From: a virus
Lineage: Duplodnaviria; Caudoviricetes
Direction: 5' to 3' (one strand)
Virus record (IMG/VR): IMGVR_UViG_3300047586_000094
Coordinates: 1 to 52,432 of that record
DNA length: 52,432 nucleotides
The notes beneath the pieces were generated by a model that searched no databases, was not told where the DNA came from, and saw only the letters and a list, made by a program, of their open reading frames with translations. The position numbers and the translations under genes are program-made. Of the stretch, positions 9,028-29,127 are shown in pieces (position 1 is the stretch's first letter; each line of letters opens with the position of its first letter).

Positions 9028-9572
9028 TGAATGACCGGGGAATTTGGACAACACCAGAAGAAGTAGCAACACATGAGTTTGATTTGCAATTATGTGATGC
9101 TATTTTTGAATTATGGAGTGGTGTGGCTTCTGTGGCAGATGTAGGTTGTGGTAAGGGGGATTATGTGAAGACTCTTCTCAGCAAAGGACTTCGATGCCAA
9201 GGATGGGATGGTAATCCTATGACCCCAGAAATAAGTGGGGGGATTTGTCGAGTGATGGATTTTTCTAAGCCAGCTAATATTGGTTTACATGATTTGGTGA
9301 TGAGCTTGGAGGTGGGTGAACATATTCCAAAAAAGTTTGAAAGTCAGTTTATAACTAATCTAACTGAGGCTTCAGTGAGGTGGATAATACTCAGCTGGGC
9401 TATTCCAGGTCAGGGAGGTGTAGGACATTTTAATGAACAGTCAAATATGTATATTATAAATGAGATGGAGAATCGTGGGTTTAAAATACAACCATCTCTT
9501 TCATTAACTCTTCGGCAGAGGAGTACACTTCCGTGGTTTAAAAATACTTTAATGGTTTTCCGTTATGAATGA
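9027..9572 (+). CDS. class I SAM-dependent methyltransferase
   Basis: VADVGCGKG motif I; SLEVGEHI. Confidence 0.85.
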   Translation: MNDRGIWTTPEEVATHEFDLQLCDAIFELWSGVASVADVGCGKGDYVKTLLSKGLRCQGWDGNPMTPEISGGICRVMDFSKPANIGLHDLVMSLEVGEHIPKKFESQFITNLTEASVRWIILSWAIPGQGGVGHFNEQSNMYIINEMENRGFKIQPSLSLTLRQRSTLPWFKNTLMVFRYE

Positions 9573-10233
9573 ACCAGTAACTGCAATTTTCTTTTCATGC
9601 AAACGTTTAGCACTTCTAAAGAAGACAATAACATCCTTCATAGTTTCAAATACTTATCCTTTAGAAGAGATTATCATAGTTAATGATAGTGGGAATGAGT
9701 TAATTCATTCTCTTTTACAAAAGCAATATCCTGATTGTACTTTGGTTTTACACCCGCACAATATTGGTTTAATTGCCAGCATTGATTTAGGATATAGACA
9801 CATCAAAACAGAATACTTCTTTCATAGTGAAGATGATTGGTGTTGTAATGGGAAGGGGGGATTTATCGAGAAATCTTTAGAGATTATGACTATACGACCT
9901 GATATTGAGGAAGTGTGGTTGGCTGATATGAATGCTCATCCTTTGGAGGCTGAAGTACTTCGTGCCGGAAGGACTGAATATCGGCTGGTTGCTCAGAATT
10001 TTCAAGGTGATTGGCATGGCTTTTCAACAGCTTGTGGGCTGAAGAGAATAAGTGATTATTGTAGGGTTGCACCATACGTAGCTATTCCTTGGGAAAAAAC
10101 CATTTGGCATAGGGAACAGGCTATTGGTTTGGAGTATTATAAATTGGGTTATCGATCAGCAATACTGATGGATGAATATGTATATAACATTGGAATGGGA
10201 CAAAGTGAATACGTTACAGGACTTGAAAAATAA
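9565..10233 (+). CDS. glycosyltransferase family 2
   Basis: IIIVNDS; FFHSEDDW (DxD-like). Confidence 0.8.
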   Translation: MNEPVTAIFFSCKRLALLKKTITSFIVSNTYPLEEIIIVNDSGNELIHSLLQKQYPDCTLVLHPHNIGLIASIDLGYRHIKTEYFFHSEDDWCCNGKGGFIEKSLEIMTIRPDIEEVWLADMNAHPLEAEVLRAGRTEYRLVAQNFQGDWHGFSTACGLKRISDYCRVAPYVAIPWEKTIWHREQAIGLEYYKLGYRSAILMDEYVYNIGMGQSEYVTGLEK

Positions 10234-10238
10234 ATGAT

Positions 10239-10727
10239 ATGCCAGGAAGTGTAGAATTATTTAAGCGTTACCCCAACAGAATGTTTATTGAAACTGGAAG
10301 TGCTTACGGGGATGGTATTCAACAAGCATTGGATGCAGGGTTTGAGAATGTGATTTCTATAGAAACATCAAAAGAGTTTTATGATCACTGCGTAGAACGG
10401 TTTAAAGGGGATTATCGGGTTGTCCTCGTTCATGGAGATAGCCGGGAGGAGCTTAAGCACGTCCCTGAGATACCATTCCCGATAACGTTCTGGCTGGATG
10501 GTCACAATGAAGATGATTATCCATTGCTGGCAGAGCTTCAGGCCATAGGTCTTTCAGATATTAAGACTCATACCATATTGATTGATGATCTACGGATGTT
10601 AGATATTGTAAAGCATGGGTTGAGTATAAAAGTTTTAACCGAGAAAATGCTGGAGATCAATCCTAATTATCAGTTTTGTTTTGAGAATGGACATGTTGCA
10701 AATGATATATTAGTTGCGAAGATATGA
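10239..10727 (+). CDS. SAM-dependent methyltransferase-like protein
   Basis: FIETGS..GDG, ISIE, GDS, FWLDGH, ILIDD. Confidence 0.75.
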   Translation: MPGSVELFKRYPNRMFIETGSAYGDGIQQALDAGFENVISIETSKEFYDHCVERFKGDYRVVLVHGDSREELKHVPEIPFPITFWLDGHNEDDYPLLAELQAIGLSDIKTHTILIDDLRMLDIVKHGLSIKVLTEKMLEINPNYQFCFENGHVANDILVAKI

Positions 10728-11425
10728 AAATAGAAGCCTTTATTTTGTGTAACAACGAAGAGATGATAATGCCATATCTGATGAGGCATTACAATCAGTT
10801 TGCTCATGTGACAATTTTGGAAAACAACTCTACTGACAATACAGTTAAGTTAGCTAAATCGCTGGGAGCAGATGTTAATATTTATGACGTTCCGGATGAG
10901 ATCAATGATCAGTGGTACATGGATGTCAAAAACAATTGCTGGAAGGGATCCAAAGCTGACTGGGCGATTGTAGGGGATGCTGATGAGTTTGTTTATCATC
11001 CGAAGATCCTGAGCATTCTGGAAAAGACTAAAGCTACAATATTTTTGCCGAGATTATTTAATATGTTCTCAGAGAAGTTTCCCACTACACAAGGGCAGAT
11101 TTATGAAGAAGTCAATATGGGGATTGAAGGTGGTGGTAAAATGAATTTATTTCGACCATCAGCTATTAAAGAGATAAATTATGATGCTGGTTGTCACTCG
11201 GCTCATCCTGTTGGAGACGTTCAATTGGATGTTAATAGTCCTATTATGACACTTCATATGAGAAACTTATCAAAAGAATATGTGATTGATCGTAATGCCA
11301 GGGCAGCAGCTCGGCTGAGTCAATTGAATAAAGATATGAAATGGGGATATCATTATAATGCTACCCCAGAAGAGATTAGTAAATATTTTGATGATTCAAT
11401 GACAGCTTTAATTAAAGTAGTATGA
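10724..11425 (+). CDS. glycosyltransferase family 2-like
   Basis: NEE, ENNSTD, DADEF motifs. Confidence 0.8.
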   Translation: MKIEAFILCNNEEMIMPYLMRHYNQFAHVTILENNSTDNTVKLAKSLGADVNIYDVPDEINDQWYMDVKNNCWKGSKADWAIVGDADEFVYHPKILSILEKTKATIFLPRLFNMFSEKFPTTQGQIYEEVNMGIEGGGKMNLFRPSAIKEINYDAGCHSAHPVGDVQLDVNSPIMTLHMRNLSKEYVIDRNARAAARLSQLNKDMKWGYHYNATPEEISKYFDDSMTALIKVV

Positions 11426-12009
11426 CGTTACATATCATTTGTGTGGCTTATAATCGAGCAATCCCCCTGAGGATATTAATAGACTCATTTATGGTGCAAA
11501 CTAATCCTAATTGGCAATTACATATCATTCATGATGGTCCAGCCCTGACTGATGTAAAACAAGTCATTAAATTATATAAACATGAATCCCGGGTACATTA
11601 TGAAGAAACTTTTAAAAGAAACGCATGTTGGGGACATCCCAATCGGAAAATGATGTTGGAGAAAATACAAACAGCTGATGGTGATTTTATATTAATGACC
11701 AACGATGATAACTATTATGTCCCGGTTTTTGTAGAGTATTTTCTGAACAAATGTAGCACGAATGCTGGTATGGGTTATTGTAATACTATTCATAACTATA
11801 TGAAGTATAGTGTTTTATATACCCGGGTGAAAGAGAATTATATAGATATGGGATCATTCATAGTTCGGGCAGATATAGCAAAATCTATAGGATTTAAACA
11901 TATGCATGAACAAGCGGATGGACGTTATGCAGAGGAGTGTGCAGCCAGTTGTTTGGAGAAACATTTGTCAGTCATGTATATTGACAAACCTCTGTTTGTC
12001 CACAATTAA
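11422..12009 (+). CDS. glycosyltransferase family 2
   Basis: IIHDGP; TNDDNYY; IDMG. Confidence 0.8.
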   Translation: MTLHIICVAYNRAIPLRILIDSFMVQTNPNWQLHIIHDGPALTDVKQVIKLYKHESRVHYEETFKRNACWGHPNRKMMLEKIQTADGDFILMTNDDNYYVPVFVEYFLNKCSTNAGMGYCNTIHNYMKYSVLYTRVKENYIDMGSFIVRADIAKSIGFKHMHEQADGRYAEECAASCLEKHLSVMYIDKPLFVHN

Positions 12010-12464: not shown

Positions 12465-12491
12465 TATATTATAATTTAAAAAGAATGTAAG

Positions 12492-12677
12492 ATGAGCAAA
12501 TTATTTCCAAACAAAACCAGCAAAAAAGTAACAGCTATTATTGTATTAATAGTTTGTGGTATTTTAATGATCCCGGCATATACGAATGAACATCTTATTG
12601 TTTTAGTTATTATAGGAGAATTCTTTTTATGGGATGCTTGCTGGTTAGTTGATTTAACTGAACATAAAATGATATGA
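12492..12677 (+). CDS. small two-TM membrane protein
   Basis: 61 aa, two hydrophobic segments. Confidence 0.5.
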   Translation: MSKLFPNKTSKKVTAIIVLIVCGILMIPAYTNEHLIVLVIIGEFFLWDACWLVDLTEHKMI

Positions 12678-12804
12678 TATTGGAGAAGTGGTTTCACAAA
12701 TGTACCTTCGTACATAACTATATATTCAGAGATATAAGTTTTTTAGTTTAGTACTATTTTTTACAAATCCCATTAGCCACTTCTCCTTCTTTTTAAAATT
12801 AAAC

Positions 12805-12815
12805 GTTCTTTGAAG
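12805..12815 (+). promoter_or_regulatory. boxA-like antitermination element
   Basis: GTTCTTTGAAG immediately upstream of the tmRNA acceptor piece; resembles stable-RNA operon boxA. Confidence 0.45.
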
Positions 12816-13200
12816 ATATTGTTATTGGAGATTTATAGAGTAGTTTGTTTGGACCGGGGTTCGACTCCCCGCAGCTCCACAATTGAGTGGTTGATCTGAA
12901 TTAACAGGGACGTCAAGGCAATTACGGTATTGCCAACCACTCTTCGCCTCACTAGTAGGTGGTAACTGAATGGATATTGGTTAGCAATAAGGCCGGAAAG
13001 ATTAGTAATACTCATCAAATATGGCAATTAGTCTAATGACAGTAAAGGTTACGTAAATCCTACCTTCGGGGCTGACATGGTTTTGACAGCAGATGAGGGA
13101 AATAAATCAATGAAGGTAACAAGCATGCCCATTAAACGGCAAAACAATCAACATGGTCGAAAGACCACAGGCTTTACGCTTAGCAGCATAAGCCGACTGA
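12816..13200 (+). ncRNA. ssrA: circularly permuted (two-piece) tmRNA
   Basis: 3' module comes first: T-arm CGGGG-TTCGACT-CCCCG (12855-12871), acceptor strand CAGCTCC-A (12872-12879). 5' module is downstream: GGGGCTG-ACATGGTTTTGAC from 13068. They form a 7-bp acceptor stem with G3.U70. Tag ORF 13138-13191 encodes GKTINMVERPQALRLAA*. Outer boundaries are approximate. Confidence 0.92.
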
Positions 13201-13230
13201 GGGGGCACTCAGGTAGTGCTCCCCTCTTTT
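13199..13230 (+). terminator. intrinsic terminator after tmRNA
   Basis: GAGGGGGCACT-caggt-AGTGCTCCCCTC hairpin followed by TTTT. Confidence 0.85.
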
Positions 13231-13261
13231 ATTAAATTAGTAGAAACCAAAAACACAAGTA

Positions 13262-13813
13262 ATGAAAAAATTTATGTTTTTAGTCTTATTATTTAGTATT
13301 CATTTTTCACTGGGGGTTGGTTCACAATACACAACCATCTACATTACAAAGGCACGAAGTATTATCAAACCTCCGGAGAAAGTAAATGTTGAATTTCGAT
13401 TATTTATTACACACTTAGGATTAATAGAATCATCTAATCAATGGAAGATCATCAATCCTATTGGATGCATGGGGAAGTATCAATTTACTCAGGCAACACT
13501 TGAACGCTTGGGATATATGGGAATAACCCCTCAGCGGTTTAAAGATAATCCTGATATCTTTCCCGAATCAATACAAGAACAAGCAATGCGGGAATTGGTA
13601 AAGAGTAATCAAAAACAATTAACTAAATCTTTTCAATATATTGGACAGATTATAAATGGTGTCAGGATCACCAAGGCAGGATTGTTAGCTGCCAGTCATT
13701 TAGCTGGGGTAGGTGGTGTTCAAAGATATCTGACAACCAGTCATAATGCTACAGATATAAATGGTACTTCAGTTCAGAAATATCTTAGAGAATTTCAGGA
13801 GTATCAGATCTGA
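13262..13813 (+). CDS. lysozyme/lytic transglycosylase-like protein with N-terminal signal or anchor (endolysin candidate)
   Basis: IESS catalytic Glu, GKYQF, LAASHLAG; hydrophobic N-terminus. Confidence 0.75.
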   Translation: MKKFMFLVLLFSIHFSLGVGSQYTTIYITKARSIIKPPEKVNVEFRLFITHLGLIESSNQWKIINPIGCMGKYQFTQATLERLGYMGITPQRFKDNPDIFPESIQEQAMRELVKSNQKQLTKSFQYIGQIINGVRITKAGLLAASHLAGVGGVQRYLTTSHNATDINGTSVQKYLREFQEYQI

Positions 13814-22272: not shown

Positions 22273-25050
22273 ATGATACAGAAACTCAGACGACTATTAG
22301 GCTGGGAAGGTTACGAAGAAGCTCTTCGTAATTTTTCTACAATAGTGGAAGAAAGTGAATTACTCAAGTCAGAGATTGATTTGATGGCTGCTGAATATAT
22401 TGGAGCTTCTAATGATCTTAGCAAGTGGCTATTGGATGAAAAAGAACCAGAGGTGCAGACATTGATCAAATCTCAACAGAGTGGTTTAACTTCCCGGTAC
22501 TTATCTTTTTTGAGTGACAAACAAAAAAGTTATAAGAAGTATGCAGCTGACAAGAAAGCATATATTCAAAAATACCCTGAGTTTGAAAAAGCATTGGCAG
22601 ATCTTAAGAAAAGTGATTTCCTGGAACAAACCCTGGAAAGATATCGTTCTTCTGAGTTGACTCTGGATGAAGCCACGACTATAATCAAAGCAGTTACAAA
22701 GGAGAAAGTCAATTACGCTGACAATATTGTGTTCAATCAAAATGGAGAAATTCTTATTGAACAACGTGGTCCCTTGGATACCACTGGTCCAAATCTTTGG
22801 TGTCTTCCCGGTGGTCATGTCAATATGGGTGAAGCTTATGAAGCAGCTGCAATGCGGGAGTTATGGGAAGAAACTGGATATCAGGTTGATGATATTTGGC
22901 AGGTAGGAGAACATGACGATGATAAATGTCACATACAATATTATACTTCAATGGTGGATACTGATGAGCAATCTCCTATTGTTGATGCCAATGAAACCAG
23001 AAATACAGCATTTGTCCCCGTTAGTAAACTCTACGATTATCCTACTATATTTAACATGTGGGATCGGGTGTATGAGATTTTAGGATTGGATGAAAATATA
23101 GTTCGGGTTAAGAAAGCTATTGCTGAAGGAATTATAAAAGGAGCATCTAAATTAATTGGTGATGCTCAGATTGATTCTATATTTAAAGGTTGTGGTGACG
23201 TTCCGGAAGGAAAGAAGAAAAAGAAAAAGAAGTTTAAAGAAGTGATGGATAAATGGAAGTCCGGAGCTTTACACAGTGGAAGTAAAGAAGGAGAGAAGGT
23301 AACTAGTCAAGCTCAAGCTCAAGCTATTGCTATTGCTATGAGTGAAACAGGACAGAGTAATCAGAAGGGTATTGAGGATGAGTTTGAAAAAGCACAAAAT
23401 AATGAAGATTTAAAAGATCTGGATGATGCAGGTATTCTTCGCACTGCTGTTACAGCTGAATTTGATGCAATAAACCTTTATGAACAGTTAGCAAAGAACG
23501 CTAAAGATGAAAAACTTAAAAAGCTTTTTGCAGATATTGTCAAAGAAGAAAAAACTCATGTTGGGGAGTTTGAAGCACTCCTGACGGAAGTTGATAAAGA
23601 ACAATCTCATGAATTAAAGTCCGGAGAAAAAGAAGAGAAAAAGGTAGAAATTGAAAAGGCTGAATTTATCAGAACAAAATGGCCTGAAGGAACAACAGAA
23701 TTTGAGAAAGCACGGACACTTGGACATTTGATTCCAAAGAAAGTTCAAGTCAAAGATAAATCAGGAAAAGTCCATCTGGCTATTCGCTGGGTCAATCCAA
23801 ATTCAGGAGAATCAGAACATTTTGCATCCGGGATGAAAGAAAACAAAAGAATTACCGGTGCAACAATTGAAGATATTGTAGCTGGTATTGTCGATAGTGA
23901 TTTATCCAGGGCAGATAAAGTCAGGAATTTAATTGATTGTGGAGTTTATGATCCTAAACTACTTACTTTATTGACTGGGGAAACTTATCCACAAAAGGCG
24001 TTACAACAAGCAGATATAAATTTAAAGGACTTACCTGATAATTCAGAAGCGATTGTCACAGAGGTTCGGAAAGAGCAGGGAGTTACTGACACTCCAGAAG
24101 GTCGGGAAGCAAGTATGTTAATGAGAGATCCGGCAGACATAGCAGTTTTATGGGCAAAATACAAATTGAATATAAAAACCGTTCTTAAAGGCAATCATAA
24201 ACTTTGTGTTGCTTATGGAACAGGTGGTGTTGGAAAAACATGGAATTGTATGAATGTAGTTGAGAATTTTAGTCCTCCCGGAGAAGAAGGTTTTAAGTTG
24301 AGACGTTTTAATAAGGAGATACAACCAGATCATGATCAATATGATTATGTAGTTGTAAAAGGAAGGATTTCAGTCGTACAAGTATATGCTGAGATGTATC
24401 GTCATCGGGATAAGATTATTATATTTGATGATTGTGATTCATTTATGAAAGAACAGGATGTACAAGGCTTTCTTAAAGGTGGATTGGATACAGGAAAAGA
24501 TTGTGAGATATCTAATTTGACAGGAAGAGCTATATATAATATTCAAGGTGATCCTGACTCAGGACAGATTCCAGATACGTTCAAATTCAAGGGTGGTGTC
24601 ATTTGTATTACAAACTTGGAATTAGGAGATATTAAAGAAAAGGCAATTCTTACTCGTGCATTGCTTAATAACTTATCAATGATAACAGATGAAACCCTGC
24701 GAATGATTGCAGAGTTTAAAGATACAATGGAAATATATTCTGCAGATAAAGCAACCGTTGTTTTTGTCAGTCAGGAAAATAGAGATCTTGCTTTTAATAT
24801 GTTAACAGAACAAAAAGATAGTTTATCTGGTGGGGATGTCAATGGCAGGATGTATAGTAATATGGCTTTACAAGCACAAGAAGCAGATGATGACGGTATT
24901 GATCAAGCAACAAAAGTAAAAATGGTTCAATTATATATTGATAGTGTTGCTGATAAGTTTACTAAACAAATGAGAGCAGCAGCATTACAAACAAAAATGA
25001 ATCAGATATATAATCAAAAAATACAATCACAACAAGCAAAATCAAGATAA
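22273..25050 (+). CDS. polyvalent protein 1: Nudix + DUF6496-like + ferritin-like + AAA ATPase
   Basis: Nudix box GGHVNMGEAYEAAAMRELWEETG; KWKSGALHSGS..AIAIAMSE; AEFDAINLYEQ..EEKTHVGEF; Walker A GTGGVGKT and Walker B IIFDD. Confidence 0.85.
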   Translation: MIQKLRRLLGWEGYEEALRNFSTIVEESELLKSEIDLMAAEYIGASNDLSKWLLDEKEPEVQTLIKSQQSGLTSRYLSFLSDKQKSYKKYAADKKAYIQKYPEFEKALADLKKSDFLEQTLERYRSSELTLDEATTIIKAVTKEKVNYADNIVFNQNGEILIEQRGPLDTTGPNLWCLPGGHVNMGEAYEAAAMRELWEETGYQVDDIWQVGEHDDDKCHIQYYTSMVDTDEQSPIVDANETRNTAFVPVSKLYDYPTIFNMWDRVYEILGLDENIVRVKKAIAEGIIKGASKLIGDAQIDSIFKGCGDVPEGKKKKKKKFKEVMDKWKSGALHSGSKEGEKVTSQAQAQAIAIAMSETGQSNQKGIEDEFEKAQNNEDLKDLDDAGILRTAVTAEFDAINLYEQLAKNAKDEKLKKLFADIVKEEKTHVGEFEALLTEVDKEQSHELKSGEKEEKKVEIEKAEFIRTKWPEGTTEFEKARTLGHLIPKKVQVKDKSGKVHLAIRWVNPNSGESEHFASGMKENKRITGATIEDIVAGIVDSDLSRADKVRNLIDCGVYDPKLLTLLTGETYPQKALQQADINLKDLPDNSEAIVTEVRKEQGVTDTPEGREASMLMRDPADIAVLWAKYKLNIKTVLKGNHKLCVAYGTGGVGKTWNCMNVVENFSPPGEEGFKLRRFNKEIQPDHDQYDYVVVKGRISVVQVYAEMYRHRDKIIIFDDCDSFMKEQDVQGFLKGGLDTGKDCEISNLTGRAIYNIQGDPDSGQIPDTFKFKGGVICITNLELGDIKEKAILTRALLNNLSMITDETLRMIAEFKDTMEIYSADKATVVFVSQENRDLAFNMLTEQKDSLSGGDVNGRMYSNMALQAQEADDDGIDQATKVKMVQLYIDSVADKFTKQMRAAALQTKMNQIYNQKIQSQQAKSR

Positions 25051-25051
25051 T

Positions 25052-25216
25052 ATGGCAAACGCTAATAATGAGAAAGAATTAGATCTTGACGATTTTACTT
25101 TGGAGGATCTTGAGTTAATGTATCGGGTAGAATTGTATAATGACATTGATTCACCTTTTGCCGTCAGTTTAATGAATGAAATTGTCAGAAGAAAAGAAAT
25201 TTTAGAAGTAGCATAA
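25052..25216 (+). CDS. small acidic protein (candidate immunity/partner)
   Basis: Manual ORF of 54 aa, MANANNEKELDLDDFTLEDLELMYRVEL...EVA*; fills the gap exactly, TAATG-coupled. Confidence 0.65.
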   Translation: MANANNEKELDLDDFTLEDLELMYRVELYNDIDSPFAVSLMNEIVRRKEILEVA

Positions 25217-28200
25217 TGGCTAGAGAGTGTCCAGTTGGGACAATTCATATTTGGGGAGATGCTCGTGGGGAAGGTACTGAAATGATTAAAGCTCACGATC
25301 CTGTACAGCCATACAGCTCGGGCTGGGTGCCTCTAAGGACTACTCCCAGATTTGATCAGGTTGGAAGAGAGTGTGATGCTTATGGACGAGATATCCTCAG
25401 TCATAAGCTTCCAATTGATGGAGAAAAGTTCTTAGATCATGAAATAGATGAATTTGGAGAAAAAGAAGGAGGTGATTTTTTCAGATCTGGTGAGTTCAAA
25501 AAGTTTGAAGGTTGGCATGATTCTGGTCGGTATGCTTTTCGTAATCAGTTTTCTAAGTTGTATATGGATAATATTATGCGACTGGATGAAGAGGTTGCCA
25601 GGGCAGTATATGATGCTAATGCAGCACTTGGATTAGATCCAAAAGAAGATCACCTATCAGCAGAAGAAAAGAAAGAAGTACGAGCTGAAATACGAGCAAG
25701 GTTCAAATCGAATCCGGACACAATAGATGAAGAGAAAGTTCTGAGATTACTTGAGATTATTAAAAAAACTAAGGAACAGATTGAAATTGGATTGGATTTT
25801 AAAGATCCTCTACAAAAGAAAGCCTACGAAGATTTCCGGATTATTGTGGATGCTTTACCAGAGACATATGAGTTAATATCTGAAAAACGAAAACTCCGGC
25901 TTAAAGCCGTTGATTTGATGGAGGATATGTTTCCTGATAACTGGGGTGTTCGGGAATCATGTAAAGATTATGCTCAAAAGAAATTCGATGAGTATGTCAG
26001 AAAATATGCTGATAGAATTTCTAAAGATAGTCTGGAAGAACAGCTCAAGATGTTTGGTGTTACAATAGATATGGAACCAGATGAGTTCTATAGTAAGATT
26101 TATGCTAAGGCTGTAAATACAAATTATGATTATCTGGAGAAGTATGTTGGAAAAGAAATTCGATTTGCCGGACATGATGTTCGTTATAAAGTCATAAAAG
26201 AAAATGGTCAACTTTATTATGTGGATCAAAATGGATATAAATACCTTTTAATTGCAGCTTTAAAGAATAATGAATATCATTTATCTCCGGAGTATGATGA
26301 GTTTGGTGGAGGATTCAAGGATTTGGTTTACCTTAGATTCATGAAGCGTTATGGTAAATCAATTGAAGGGGAATGGACATTGGAACAATTACCAGCTATT
26401 CACAACCTGGAGAATTTAGCTAATGAGTTACCAGATGGACAATTTAAAACAAATGAAGAGTTATACCTCATTACCAATAAAAGTTATGCTGGTGGAGATC
26501 ATGGTGGTTATGCTTGGTATAATCGTGGTGAAAGACGTATAAATTTAAGTGCTCAATGTATTGCCAGAGCAACAGTTTGGGGAGTATTACAAAATCCATC
26601 AGAGTTTAAGTCTGTATTATTACATGAAATAGGACACTCAATAGATGCAAAAATTAATGGGACAGCTACATATGATTATAAGAAATTCGTGGTGGATTGT
26701 GGTTGGACATATCAATCAAAGGAGTTACGAGCAGGAATGTCAGCAACCGGGAATCAGAAAGATATTCTACGAACTGGATCTAATGCTTCTACAACTTTAA
26801 TAACTGACTACGCTCATAAGTCTCCCAGTGAAGCATTCGCAGAATATTATTCATTTTATAATCTGAATAAAAAACATTTTGATAAATATTTTGAAACTGG
26901 AGATACACAATATTTACAAACAGATAGTAAGATAATTGCCAAGAGTGTTTCTTCAGAACAGAAGATTAAACAGATGCTTGGTACCAGAATAATTAAACCG
27001 GGAGATGATCATGAATATGAATTAAAGCATGAGAGACCTAAAAGAGTCAATGTTCCAGAAGGACAACCACAACCTCCACCACCTCCCGTTCCAACTATAG
27101 GAGCACAACAAGTGTTGAAAACATATAATGAAGTTACTCAGGCTTTATCTGACCGTGGACAGGATCATCAAATAACATTGACCAATCCTTGGTCAATGAA
27201 ACTTAGTATAGAGGAGCAAGCAAAGTTTAATCCTAAACGTGTTAAAGAACGTAAAGGGTTTTCAATTAATTCCATGCCACCTCTTGTAGTTGTAAAAAAT
27301 GGAGCAACTCGTGTGGTTATTGATGGTGGGGTCCGGATGGAAGTAGCAAGAATGAATAAACAATTGGCTCCTTGTATTGAGATATCAAAAGAAGAATATT
27401 ATAATTGTCGGGATCGTGGAATGGATGATCGTCAAATTTCTGATTGTGTTTATACGAAGCATGCCGATGATTGGGTTCCAAAACAAATTGCACCTGCTGT
27501 CCGGGTAAGTGGTTTAATTTATAGGGATGAGTTGGTTCCATTGGATGTTATTTTAGACAATCATGATGGAATAAAAACAATGAAAGATCTTTGTGAATCA
27601 AAAACTTTACAGAAAGCAATCGAGGAGTTATTTGGTGATATAGACGATGGGTTTAATAAAGCAATACAAAGAGGCAAACTCTATCCCAAAAAAGTACAGG
27701 TCAAAGGGAAAGATGGTAAAACTCATACAGCTATTCGTTGGGTTAAAATACAAGAGGAAGAGAAACCAGTCACTCCGGAGAAAAAAGAAAAGAAAACTTT
27801 TATAAGTGATCCAAAAAAATCTGTTATTCTTAGTCAATTAAAAGGAATGCTTCAATTGAATCTTTCTGATCAACAGAAAGAATATATGGAGTGGAAGCTT
27901 AAGCATGCCAAGTTAATTTCAACATTTACACATACGGATGAGATTAGACAACAATATCCAGCAATTGATCGTTTTTTAAAACATTTCAAACCAGTAGTGA
28001 AAGAATGCTATCGAAATGCTTCCCGAATGGCTGTTGACGTTCCAGGGATTGAGTATGTGGAAGGTTCCATTTCTTTGAGGGATTTACCTATAGAAATTGA
28101 ACATGCTTGGAATAAAGTAGGAGATCAATATTTTGATATTATGTCTGATAATTGCTGGGATGAACGTTCCATGCCTACGTCTGAATATGTTTCTTTTGTG

Positions 28201-29127
28201 GAATTAAACGACGAAGCTTTGGACGAATGTATGTTGGAAGATGGAATGTATGGTGAATGTGTTAAAAAAACATTTCTCAAAGAATTAAAAGCAAAACAAA
28301 GTACATTCTCATATGAACCCAACTCAGCCCTCAAATCTAAAGCTCATCAACTTATAGAAACTAAGTTTGCTGATGAGTTAAAATGGAATTTGGATGCAAA
28401 AGAAAAAGAATATAAAGCTAAATTTCATAATGTACTTAGTGGGGATAATGCTAAGGAGTTGTCTGAAGATTACATGAAAGATCCTATGGGATTATCAGAA
28501 GCTGTTCATGAGCCTGCGTCCGGATTTGTGAAATATTTGTATAATAAAGAGTTAAGTGTCCCAGTTACGAAAGATCAAGACAATGTGGTGGTATTTACAG
28601 CAGGGGGATCAGGAGCAGGTAAGACGACTGGTATTACACAGTTTGGAGTGTTGGGAGATCTTACGAAGAAAGCAAATATCGTTTATGATACCACGATGAG
28701 TTCATTCCGAAGTGCAGATAATAAAATTCAGCAGGCAATTAAACATGACCGGGATGTTGTAATCCTTTATGTTTATAGAGGGTTGGAAGATGCATTTACA
28801 AATGGAGTTGTTCCCAGGATGAAAGCAACCGGACGGGTTATTCCTTATTATGCACACGTAATGAACCACATTGACTCTTTAGCTACTATTAAAAAATTAA
28901 CAGACAAATATAAAGATAGTGATCGGGTCTCAATTCAATTGGTGGACAACTCTAATGGGTTTGGGAATGCAAGAATAATGACACCAGAAGAATTGAACAA
29001 TATTAAGTTTGTAGAACCTGAACATTATGAAAAAGAATTATTGGCAGAGATTAATAAACAGAAACAAAATGGACAAATCACAGAAAGACAATACAAAGGA
29101 CTTCTTGGATCAAGAAGCGTCACTTGA
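25216..29127 (+). CDS. polyvalent protein 2: zincin metallopeptidase + ParB-like + papain/transglutaminase-like + zeta-toxin-like kinase
   Basis: HEIGH..YAHKSPSEAFAE; PPLVVV..VIDGGVR; CYRNA..HAWN..FD; FTAGGSGAGKTT..YDTT..GRVIP. Confidence 0.82.
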   Translation: MARECPVGTIHIWGDARGEGTEMIKAHDPVQPYSSGWVPLRTTPRFDQVGRECDAYGRDILSHKLPIDGEKFLDHEIDEFGEKEGGDFFRSGEFKKFEGWHDSGRYAFRNQFSKLYMDNIMRLDEEVARAVYDANAALGLDPKEDHLSAEEKKEVRAEIRARFKSNPDTIDEEKVLRLLEIIKKTKEQIEIGLDFKDPLQKKAYEDFRIIVDALPETYELISEKRKLRLKAVDLMEDMFPDNWGVRESCKDYAQKKFDEYVRKYADRISKDSLEEQLKMFGVTIDMEPDEFYSKIYAKAVNTNYDYLEKYVGKEIRFAGHDVRYKVIKENGQLYYVDQNGYKYLLIAALKNNEYHLSPEYDEFGGGFKDLVYLRFMKRYGKSIEGEWTLEQLPAIHNLENLANELPDGQFKTNEELYLITNKSYAGGDHGGYAWYNRGERRINLSAQCIARATVWGVLQNPSEFKSVLLHEIGHSIDAKINGTATYDYKKFVVDCGWTYQSKELRAGMSATGNQKDILRTGSNASTTLITDYAHKSPSEAFAEYYSFYNLNKKHFDKYFETGDTQYLQTDSKIIAKSVSSEQKIKQMLGTRIIKPGDDHEYELKHERPKRVNVPEGQPQPPPPPVPTIGAQQVLKTYNEVTQALSDRGQDHQITLTNPWSMKLSIEEQAKFNPKRVKERKGFSINSMPPLVVVKNGATRVVIDGGVRMEVARMNKQLAPCIEISKEEYYNCRDRGMDDRQISDCVYTKHADDWVPKQIAPAVRVSGLIYRDELVPLDVILDNHDGIKTMKDLCESKTLQKAIEELFGDIDDGFNKAIQRGKLYPKKVQVKGKDGKTHTAIRWVKIQEEEKPVTPEKKEKKTFISDPKKSVILSQLKGMLQLNLSDQQKEYMEWKLKHAKLISTFTHTDEIRQQYPAIDRFLKHFKPVVKECYRNASRMAVDVPGIEYVEGSISLRDLPIEIEHAWNKVGDQYFDIMSDNCWDERSMPTSEYVSFVELNDEALDECMLEDGMYGECVKKTFLKELKAKQSTFSYEPNSALKSKAHQLIETKFADELKWNLDAKEKEYKAKFHNVLSGDNAKELSEDYMKDPMGLSEAVHEPASGFVKYLYNKELSVPVTKDQDNVVVFTAGGSGAGKTTGITQFGVLGDLTKKANIVYDTTMSSFRSADNKIQQAIKHDRDVVILYVYRGLEDAFTNGVVPRMKATGRVIPYYAHVMNHIDSLATIKKLTDKYKDSDRVSIQLVDNSNGFGNARIMTPEELNNIKFVEPEHYEKELLAEINKQKQNGQITERQYKGLLGSRSVT

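Follow-up and report, generated by a model that had tools for sequence, protein, structure and literature searches.

A two-piece, pseudoknot-free transfer-messenger RNA gene, probably of Bacteroidota phages

What kind of transfer-messenger RNA (tmRNA) gene carries its acceptor half upstream of its 5' half and leaves no room for pseudoknots, and from which tmRNA lineage did it reach a phage? The question is raised by a locus at positions 12816 to 13230 of IMG/VR record IMGVR_UViG_3300047586_000094, a viral record of 52,432 bases (estimated to be ~47% complete) that was analyzed over its whole length and is called the window below. An initial annotation had read this locus as a circularly permuted, highly minimized tmRNA gene with Bacteroidota-like termini that arose by an independent permutation. 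From sequence comparison and covariance models, we hold it likely to be a functional permuted (two-piece) ssrA gene of a Bacteroidota myophage, belonging to a phage-borne family that lacks pseudoknots and that probably came from the one-piece Bacteroidota tmRNA with a glycine-initiated tag (Gly-tag type).

Three permuted bacterial tmRNA lineages have been known since 2004. The available text of PMC3968760 and PMC11915505 treats permuted genes as a trait of three bacterial clades and some mitochondria, and that of PMC9004378 already reports two-piece tmRNAs from phages (53 found by ARAGORN in phage genomes, mostly marine). The accessible portions of papers on flavobacterial, Maribacter, and Chryseobacterium phages give tmRNA only as an annotation count. 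No Bacteroidota-type or phage-specific permuted lineage was described in the literature searched, although Table S2 of PMC11915505 and Table S1 of PMC9004378 may list such genes; nor did that literature describe a natural pseudoknot-free tmRNA that encodes a tag.

Anatomy, assembly, and covariation of the window gene

The only RNA gene that ARAGORN reported in the window was a permuted tmRNA (12790-13387), and the Rfam model RF04321 (tmRNA_permuted) matched 12820-13191 over its full length (70.5 bits against a gathering threshold of 47; E = 1.3e-11 for the whole window), in agreement with the reading as a permuted phage tmRNA. The other tmRNA models stayed under their gathering thresholds: the standard one-piece model RF00023 reached 28.2 of 47 bits, with the score driven by the 3' half, and the alpha (RF01849), beta (RF01850), and cyanobacterial (RF01851) models reached 20.9 of 50, 29.4 of 84, and 26.9 of 70 bits, over model positions 67-186, 81-162, and 56-120 only.

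The gene lies on the + strand, and the elements listed initially were present at, or no more than one base from, the positions first given. The acceptor piece begins with the 3' strands of helix 2 (P2c 12819-12826, P2b 12830-12836, P2a 12843-12849), followed by the 3' half of the tRNA-like domain (12850-12882), which comprises a UGGAC junction, the T-arm (12855-12871), the acceptor 3' strand CAGCTCC (12872-12878), the discriminator A (12879), and CAA (12880-12882) in place of CCA. After a spacer of 185 nucleotides (nt) (12883-13067), presumed to be excised and not conserved in sequence, comes the 5' half of the tRNA-like domain (13068-13087), with the acceptor 5' strand GGGGCUG (13068-13074) and the D-loop analogue ACAUGGUUUUGAC, which ends in UGGUUUUGAC. 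Across the 185 nt that separate this strand from the upstream CAA, the acceptor stem forms 7 of 7 pairs, G3.U70 included, with discriminator A73, and is thus as perfect as first described. A structured or functional spacer was rejected: the window spacer folds no better than its shuffles (z = -0.39), and no Rfam family matches it.

The coding piece continues with the 5' strands of helix 2 (P2a 13088-13094, P2b 13102-13108, P2c 13115-13122), which pair with the acceptor piece as GTTTGTT/AGCAGAT (P2a), GATTTAT/ATAAATC (P2b), and TTGTTA(TT)/(GG)TAACAA (P2c). These three inter-piece helices, proposed by eye in the initial annotation, were all returned by RNAcofold from the two window pieces without constraints, and they covary across 11 homologues. 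The linker GCAUGCCCAUUAAAC (13123-13137) sits where one-piece relatives have a pseudoknot 1 (pk1) of ~45 nt; with helix 2 and the resume codon just 15 nt apart, pk1 has no room, and none was found there. The tag frame (13138-13191) runs from GGC at 13138 to UAA at 13189-13191, encodes the 17-amino-acid tag GKTINMVERPQALRLAA, and contains a GAAA-capped hairpin (13154-13167) that covaries in the window and in the related loci L256 and L269. A terminator-like hairpin starts 8-10 nt after the stop codon; with its U-tract it occupies 13199-13233 (terminator scan: stem 13201-13223, 9 pairs, tail CTCTTTTATT) and is likely an intrinsic terminator that forms the 3' end of the coding piece. The short linker and the early terminator bear out the proposed lack of pk1 to pk4.

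An assembly error that joined two unrelated tmRNA fragments would give the same gene order, and the 30-mer at 12846-12875 is indeed repeated in the metagenome (depth rising from ~17 to 52), with contigs of a separate assembly ending there. We checked this in two DNA runs from peat metagenomes (X1 and X2). Contigs from X1 break at this 30-mer, which is common to co-occurring one-piece tmRNAs whose 3' regions form loose ends there. A 30,943-nt contig from the separate X1 assembly nevertheless bridges 12846-13300, and one of 12,776 nt spans 12700-12875, both with 0 differences from the window, although X1 may be the window's own source sample. An L256-like relative was also found in X1. The permuted order recurs in at least 30 other contigs and two deposited phage genomes, and we give an artefact next to no credence.

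For covariation, the six helices of the window were mapped onto an 11-sequence MAFFT alignment in which the window is one of the sequences. Pairing was possible in 82.8% of cells, against 42-55% with the partners slid by 1-3 columns, a control that is inflated because the tested structure came from the window itself. Changes on both sides occurred in 19 of 39 pairs (reached by 1 of 500 shuffles), and the covariation score was 0.285 against a shuffled mean of 0.136 (reached by 0 of 500). Within helix 2, 70% of cells were paired in P2c, 83% in P2b, and 89% in P2a, with 4, 4, and 3 pairs, 11 in all, altered on both sides. The T-arm was 100% paired, with both-side changes in 4 of 5 pairs; G3.U70 was present in 11 of 11 sequences, and acceptor pair 5:68 varied among C-G, A-U, G-C, and U.G. 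A 7-bp acceptor stem, G3.U70, A73, and the T-arm together make this a tRNA-Ala-like domain.

Several observations, the inflated control among them, pull the other way. The low value of P2c and that of the tag hairpin, in which only 60% of cells are paired, come partly from misalignment; the minimum-free-energy cofolds of L255, L274, and Chryseobacterium phage MA9V-3 lack the canonical helix 2; and the T-loop of L263 is aberrant. Detection was uneven as well: the tag that ARAGORN gave for the window, ETKNTSNEKIYVFSLII, is a mis-call that runs into the downstream open reading frame (ORF), no tmRNA was called in L006, L010/L013, L274, or the crAss-like genome cr53_1, and RF04321 scores in the family are modest (49-70 bits, against 90-150 for permuted tmRNAs of known types).

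A phage family with its own tags

The gene is real, as first claimed, but it is not unique. At least 30 viral or metagenomic contigs, found via pattern scans of IMG/VR and Joint Genome Institute metagenomes and via the downstream lysozyme-like gene, carry the same permuted layout. In 11 of 11 aligned loci, the T-arm and the acceptor 3' strand precede a 5' strand that is perfectly complementary to the latter; L258 was judged permuted by eye and by its 57.2 bits with RF04321. The order is the same in 17 of 20 further loci; of the three exceptions, L291 is one-piece, L304 is interrupted by an intron, and L293 is a chance hit. Relatives score 49.2-68.1 bits with RF04321. Two loci reached through the lysozyme-like gene, L007 and L008, have a syntenic permuted tmRNA (63 bits) for which ARAGORN gives the tag GKTIQMPERAQVNMAA.

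Homologous tags of 14-17 amino acids, initiated by Gly, are encoded in ~30 relatives (pattern GK[TSI]I.M...LR.AA), for example GKTINMVERPQELRLAA in L301 and GKTIQMPERAQVNMAA in L256; others are GKTNNMIERSQELRIAA, GKTIQMFNQPLRMVA, GKTIEMYNQPLRMVA, GKTIKMYNPSLRVAA, GKSIKMSDQSLRMAA, and GKIIKMTTPQLKAAA. Each frame has a resume codon, a stop codon, and a hydrophobic C terminus, which is mostly AA or VA and in a few cases SA, AS, AV, or VG. Closely related tags differ by synonymous codons (window, L256, L255, L260/L274, L261, L263, L266, L268, L269, L301, and others). The resume codon lies 60-71 nt from G1, compared with 93-99 nt in most Bacteroidota one-piece genes, and all 11 aligned members have an equivalent of the terminal hairpin after the stop codon.

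Spacers, which cannot be aligned between members, range from ~43 to 287 nt (49-287 nt in the 11 aligned loci; ~43-226 nt in the 20 further ones, from offsets of -71 to -254). A complete tRNA gene lies inside the spacer of L269 (1107-1176, - strand), L301 (3927-4002, - strand; tRNA-Met), and L295 (459-530, + strand; tRNA-Glu), so that one precursor would give three RNAs in these loci. Another tRNA gene stands directly 3' of the coding piece in L261 and apparently also in L263 and L266.

Two members are in deposited phage genomes. Chryseobacterium phage MA9V-3 (PV245944.1) carries one (~22766-23124; 64.7 bits, tag GNVIDINKYVAKLEVAA) that its record already labels "transfer-messenger RNA SsrA"; the available text of the MA9V-3 paper lists this tmRNA as ORF 55 and says nothing there on permutation (PMC13120357). 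The crAss-like RefSeq genome cr53_1 (NC_055889.1) has an unannotated member (50.3 bits, tag GNTSYVMDYTGIAA) that ARAGORN missed. Against 50,697 deposited phage records, neither the whole window gene (blastn, distant mode) nor its 78-nt 5' part (blastn, E <= 10) found a match, and queries with the MA9V-3 and L255 genes found only MA9V-3 itself, cr53_1, and a short tRNA-like match in an Alcaligenes phage. The family has stayed hidden in annotation because ARAGORN misses or mis-calls several of its members and records say only "tmRNA".

Integration into ssrA, with uptake of the 3' end of the gene, is common among phages, and the locus might be a nonfunctional remnant, either a piece of host ssrA acquired at such a site or a duplicate in decay. 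When viral loci were retrieved with the 3' module alone, many of the 120 proved to be ordinary host tmRNA ends close to the end of a contig, and a co-occurring one-piece tmRNA shares with the window an identical 30-nt T-arm/acceptor stretch. A remnant would, however, hardly keep what is seen here: neither half is missing, their complementarity is perfect, four helices are maintained by compensatory changes, and the tag frame is intact in all but the chance hit L293. The gene also occurs in phages of different architectures, among them a complete 69-kb genome with terminal repeats and an isolate described in the available text as strictly lytic (PMC13120357). We regard decay as very improbable and continue with a functional phage gene.

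Some neighboring forms were recorded beside the family. The L304 gene (1620-2276, + strand) has a family-type 5' half and the tag GKPINAKVVVMTPASSTVIRLAA (or AKVV... with a GCU resume codon), and it is split by a group I intron (RF00028, 99.9 bits) that starts at the expected T-loop; a second, partial group I match lies at 13283-13508 of the same locus. The L304 tag recurs in L291, where the gene is one-piece and 488 nt long (RF00023, 69.5 bits) and has three tRNA genes as neighbors. L291 was considered as a one-piece ancestor without pk1 and rejected, the model alignment having a hairpin at the pk1 position and suggesting a GCU resume codon. In record G005, a RAGATH-22 RNA (L108:1964-2129, - strand; RF03098, 193.8 bits against a cutoff of 120.3) lies ~470 nt from another permuted phage tmRNA (tag GNTFVTDYTALGAA), which a tRNA gene follows at once.

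Lineage of the family

The 5' motif GGGGNUGA(1-3)UGGUUUUGACAG, scanned over one genome per species, matched at least 120 loci. Among the matches listed, 79 of 80 titles name Bacteroidota taxa and one a "Clostridium sp." metagenome-assembled genome (phylum was assigned partly from general taxonomy and partly from labels in the tree analysis), and ARAGORN called a standard one-piece tmRNA in 101 of 120 loci. The 19 loci without a call comprised 16 at locus ends, L142, which Rfam classes as standard (139.6 bits), and two loci that gave no match, L189 and L232. The 101 one-piece genes are 363-414 nt long (mean, 395), with a GGC resume codon in 93, a 9-amino-acid tag in 84, and AAGCATG in 94. CCA is encoded in 6 of them, the commonest tails being CAA and CTT (21 each); the incomplete CCA of the window (A-CAA), correctly observed in the initial annotation, is therefore normal for the lineage rather than peculiar to the phage. 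The taxa bearing the 5' motif, the GGC resume codon, and the CCA-less tails agree in giving the window gene Bacteroidota-like termini.

Two characters that played no part in finding the sequences separate the types. UUUGGAC precedes the T-stem in 20 of 27 family members, 13 of 15 Bacteroidota Gly-tag genes, 0 of 10 Ala-tag genes, and 0 of 4 known permuted genes, and CCA is encoded in 1 of 27 (L303), 1 of 15, 2 of 10, and 4 of 4, respectively. With the one-piece Gly-tag tmRNA of Bacteroidota (RF00023), the window gene further shares the 5' module GGGGCUGA..UGGUUUUGACAGC, the motif AAGCAUGCC, the UAAAC-GGC resume context, UUGUUUGGAC before the T-arm, and CAA or CUU for CCA. They differ in that the bacterial genes have pk1 to pk4 and mostly a 9-amino-acid tag, whereas the phage gene is permuted, totals ~230 nt in two pieces, and has a 17-amino-acid tag. 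The UGGUUUUGACAGC D-loop analogue, GGC after UAAAC, UUUGGAC, and a CCA that is usually not encoded thus place the family with the Gly-tag type, an assignment that rests on common characters, the tree of the tRNA-like domain being largely without resolution.

The two-piece tmRNAs of Alphaproteobacteria, some Betaproteobacteria, and Cyanobacteria (RF01849, RF01850, and RF01851, merged in RF04321) have the same order of acceptor piece, spacer, and coding piece, the same joining by acceptor stem and helix 2, and, as the available text of PMC3968760 notes for two-piece tmRNAs, fewer pseudoknots. The window gene is unlike them in lacking pk1, in its Gly (GGC) first tag codon, in its CCA, which is not encoded, and in its D-loop analogue (UUUUGAC instead of UUUCGAC). 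Phage and metagenome contigs were the only sources of this form here; of 151 genomes sampled across the putative host phylum, none reached the RF04321 cutoff (best, 40.7 bits), and the five best subthreshold matches there are ordinary one-piece genes. The host-type gene being one-piece, the permutation appears specific to the phage copies.

Alternatively, the family could have its origin in a bacterial lineage (beta-like or alpha-like) that was permuted beforehand and that phages moved into Bacteroidota hosts, where it adapted while remaining the same RNA with the same function. The 80-column tree of the tRNA-like domain tells for this and against our lineage assignment, since it places 23 of 27 family rows in one supported set with 4 beta-like permuted rows, the four beta-like phage tmRNAs nesting among family members, and a single clade of the family and the known permuted genes was not rejected by the approximately unbiased test (p-AU, 0.244); 35 of the 65 inner forks of this tree are open. 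Agreement on the 5' motif is, moreover, circular, because most family members and the Gly-tag set were found with it. For several members, the best clan matches are also weak ones to beta_tmRNA (L013, 38.2 bits; L108, 42.8; L273, 40.7; L274, 35.7), though these cover only the tRNA-like core (model positions ~81-162) and fall far under 84 bits. Permuted phage loci of known type behave differently: 5 of 7, all fetched by the 3' module alone, pass beta_tmRNA with 87.7-161.4 bits, and L046 (71.7) and L049 (33.3) fail. Set against descent from a permuted lineage are the UUUGGAC and CCA counts, the GGC resume codon in its UAAAC context, and the AAGCAUGCC motif in the window and L256. We consider such a descent possible but rather unlikely. 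The family most likely arose, by these characters, from the Gly-tag (GENNYALAA-type) one-piece tmRNA of Bacteroidota, apart from the alpha, beta, and cyanobacterial permuted lineages. That its permutation is independent of theirs, as the initial annotation had proposed, is likely in view of the failing clade models and the matching one-piece characters, and it is not proven, because the tree is largely without resolution.

We lean, by a small measure past even, toward a wider joint reading, in which Bacteroidota phages own a tmRNA lineage that is independently permuted, free of pseudoknots, equipped with a phage-specific tag of 14-17 amino acids instead of GENNYALAA, and sometimes provided with a spacer that serves as a tRNA slot, and which is represented in myophages of soil and peat, in a cultured Chryseobacterium phage, and in a crAss-like phage of the gut. 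Being phage restricted and like the one-piece Bacteroidota gene, it would be a further, probably independent, origin of two-piece tmRNA. If this is true, phages re-engineer ribosome rescue to a minimal two-piece form and do not merely copy the host's, and they may change the choice of proteins that are tagged for degradation in infected cells.

Proposed function and genomic context

Anatomy, covariation, conserved tags, phage setting, and the spread of the family are what the analyses show; processing, charging, tagging, and the benefit to the phage are inferred, as follows. A single precursor would extend from just upstream of ~12805-12819 to the terminator at ~13233. Host RNase P would cleave 5' of G13068, and the host pathway for CCA-less tRNA precursors would trim after A12879 and add CCA, the 185-nt spacer being discarded, to leave an acceptor piece (~65 nt) and a coding piece (~165 nt) held together by the acceptor stem and the three-part helix 2. 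In the available text of PMC11915505 and PMC3968760, permuted tmRNA precursors are cut by tRNA-processing enzymes and the two RNAs stay base-paired; the tRNA genes within spacers or after coding pieces fit such tRNA-type processing, and the host must have a CCA-adding route, because host-type genes also lack an encoded CCA. Charging via G3.U70 would fall to host alanyl-tRNA synthetase, and host SmpB and EF-Tu would bring the RNA to ribosomes that have stalled. The search for an SmpB gene was negative in the window and in five related phage records (two of them >=99% complete), so SmpB must come from the host.

Translation would resume at GGC 13138 and append GKTINMVERPQALRLAA, whose C-terminal LAA should direct Clp-type proteolysis; ClpX binds a C-terminal LAA, according to the available text of PMC3968760, and the family tags keep Clp-type C termini (LAA, VAA, MVA, and similar). 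The phage would likely benefit from ribosomes kept free during infection, from a phage-specific degradation tag, or from both. At about twice the length of the host tag and with a conserved N-terminal part, the phage tag suggests a phage-specific use of tagging; that it is longer than the host's, different from it, and conserved among phages points to selection on tag function beyond ribosome release. The role against defense nucleases that was suggested initially is speculation. MA9V-3 is lytic and its host, Chryseobacterium, can be cultured, which makes processing, charging, and tagging directly testable. The table in the available text of the MA9V-3 paper also lists a ClpX-like ATPase (ORF 62, 26938-27777) ~4 kb from the tmRNA (PMC13120357), which hints, by gene content, at a phage-controlled pair for tagging and unfolding. 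A ClpP-family domain occurs in one of the five related records (G006) and is probably a head-maturation protease.

Two-piece tmRNAs usually lack pk2 to pk4, and the lack of pk1 is unusual. The proposed RNA would work without any of the four. This is a difficulty for its function, since tagging in Escherichia coli needs pk1 unless a stable hairpin replaces it (available text of PMC3968760) and the 15-nt linker of the window has no evident replacement hairpin. Engineered E. coli tmRNAs with pk1 lacking or replaced (Tanner et al. 2006 and Wower et al. 2009, as cited in the available text of PMC3968760) are a precedent for tagging without pk1, as in the window gene; those constructs keep pk2 to pk4 and mostly substitute a hairpin, whereas the phage architecture is natural, conserved, and has none of the four. 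A natural minimal tmRNA of this kind, made of a tRNA-like domain, helix 2, a tag frame, and one terminal hairpin in ~230 nt and two pieces, would be a test case for the purpose of pseudoknots, pk1 in particular.

The missing pk1 would also suit a decoy that titrates host SmpB or blocks host trans-translation instead of tagging. Mycobacteriophage DS6A has a likewise minimized, phage-borne tmRNA with little beyond the tRNA-like domain, and strong inhibition of tmRNA, perhaps through titration of SmpB, has been reported for a similar molecule (available text of PMC4131195). A DS6A-like form exists here too, an unpermuted, tag-less tmRNA of 82 nt in a related phage contig (L014:937-1018, + strand; RF00023, 71.6 bits), which consists of the tRNA-like domain only and has the 5' module GGGGCUGA..UGGUUUUGACAG as in the family. 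DS6A, however, has no tag frame and is not permuted (available text of PMC4131195 and PMC11915505), whereas the tag frame of the window gene is conserved. For a decoy, a reading frame would be superfluous, but ~30 divergent members conserve this frame, with synonymous changes, together with its resume context and its hydrophobic C terminus, and helix 2 and the hairpin after the stop codon are kept as well. We find a decoy improbable and prefer a tagging RNA.

A close published parallel is the two-piece tmRNA of marine myophages (Methylophilales phage Melnitz, pelagimyophages, and cyanophages), which, in the available text of PMC9004378, is likewise a virus-borne permuted ssrA without a phage SmpB and is proposed to maintain the hijacked translation machinery. 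Those genes resemble the already permuted alpha or cyanobacterial types of their (former) hosts, while here the host-type gene is one-piece; unlike in the marine phages, no riboswitch was found here.

Nearly all window ORFs are on the + strand. They include a portal gene (phrog_12, E = 3.4e-31; PF04860, E = 2.3e-16), a tail sheath gene (phrog_279, E = 7.8e-27), and a weak match to an SU10-like capsid; by these genes the window is a fragment of a myophage genome. The closest cultured portals, with 32-34% identity, are those of Bacteroides phages DAC16, 19, 20, 22, 23, and SJC03 and of Chryseobacterium phage MA9V-3, and the host is probably a member of the Bacteroidota, as judged from sequence. 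One-piece Bacteroidota-type tmRNA genes with a T-arm/acceptor 30-mer identical to phage positions 12846-12875 are present in X1 and X2, and the bacteria that own them are host candidates.

The genes on either side of the tmRNA gene encode a DUF5675 protein and a lysozyme-like one. The leader motif GTTCTTTGAAG (12805-12815, + strand), immediately 5' to the acceptor piece, is kept in most homologues (missing in L266) and absent from the 101 bacterial one-piece tmRNAs; it may be part of a promoter or mark the 5' end of the transcript, its TTTG resembling the Bacteroidota -7 box. As a recurring phage promoter it was rejected (3 matches in the window against 1.5 expected, equaled by 19 of 100 shuffles). 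The 340-nt noncoding stretch upstream (12465-12805) is not conserved in relatives and contains a 10-nt inverted repeat (GGAGAAGTGG at 12682-12691 and CCACTTCTCC at 12779-12788); a weak RF00023 alignment at 12682-12700, considered as a relic of an ancestral 5' half, was dropped because L007 and L006 do not conserve it. A run of three family-2 glycosyltransferase genes (9565-12009) immediately precedes the DUF5675 gene and the tmRNA. Two very large proteins are encoded 3' of the head genes (22273-25050 and 25216-29127); one, of 925 amino acids, has a Nudix domain (phrog_1198, E = 1.2e-22), and the other, of 1303 amino acids, has a Zeta-toxin-like kinase domain at its C terminus (PF06414, 30.8 bits). 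Both are candidates for ejected or virion proteins.

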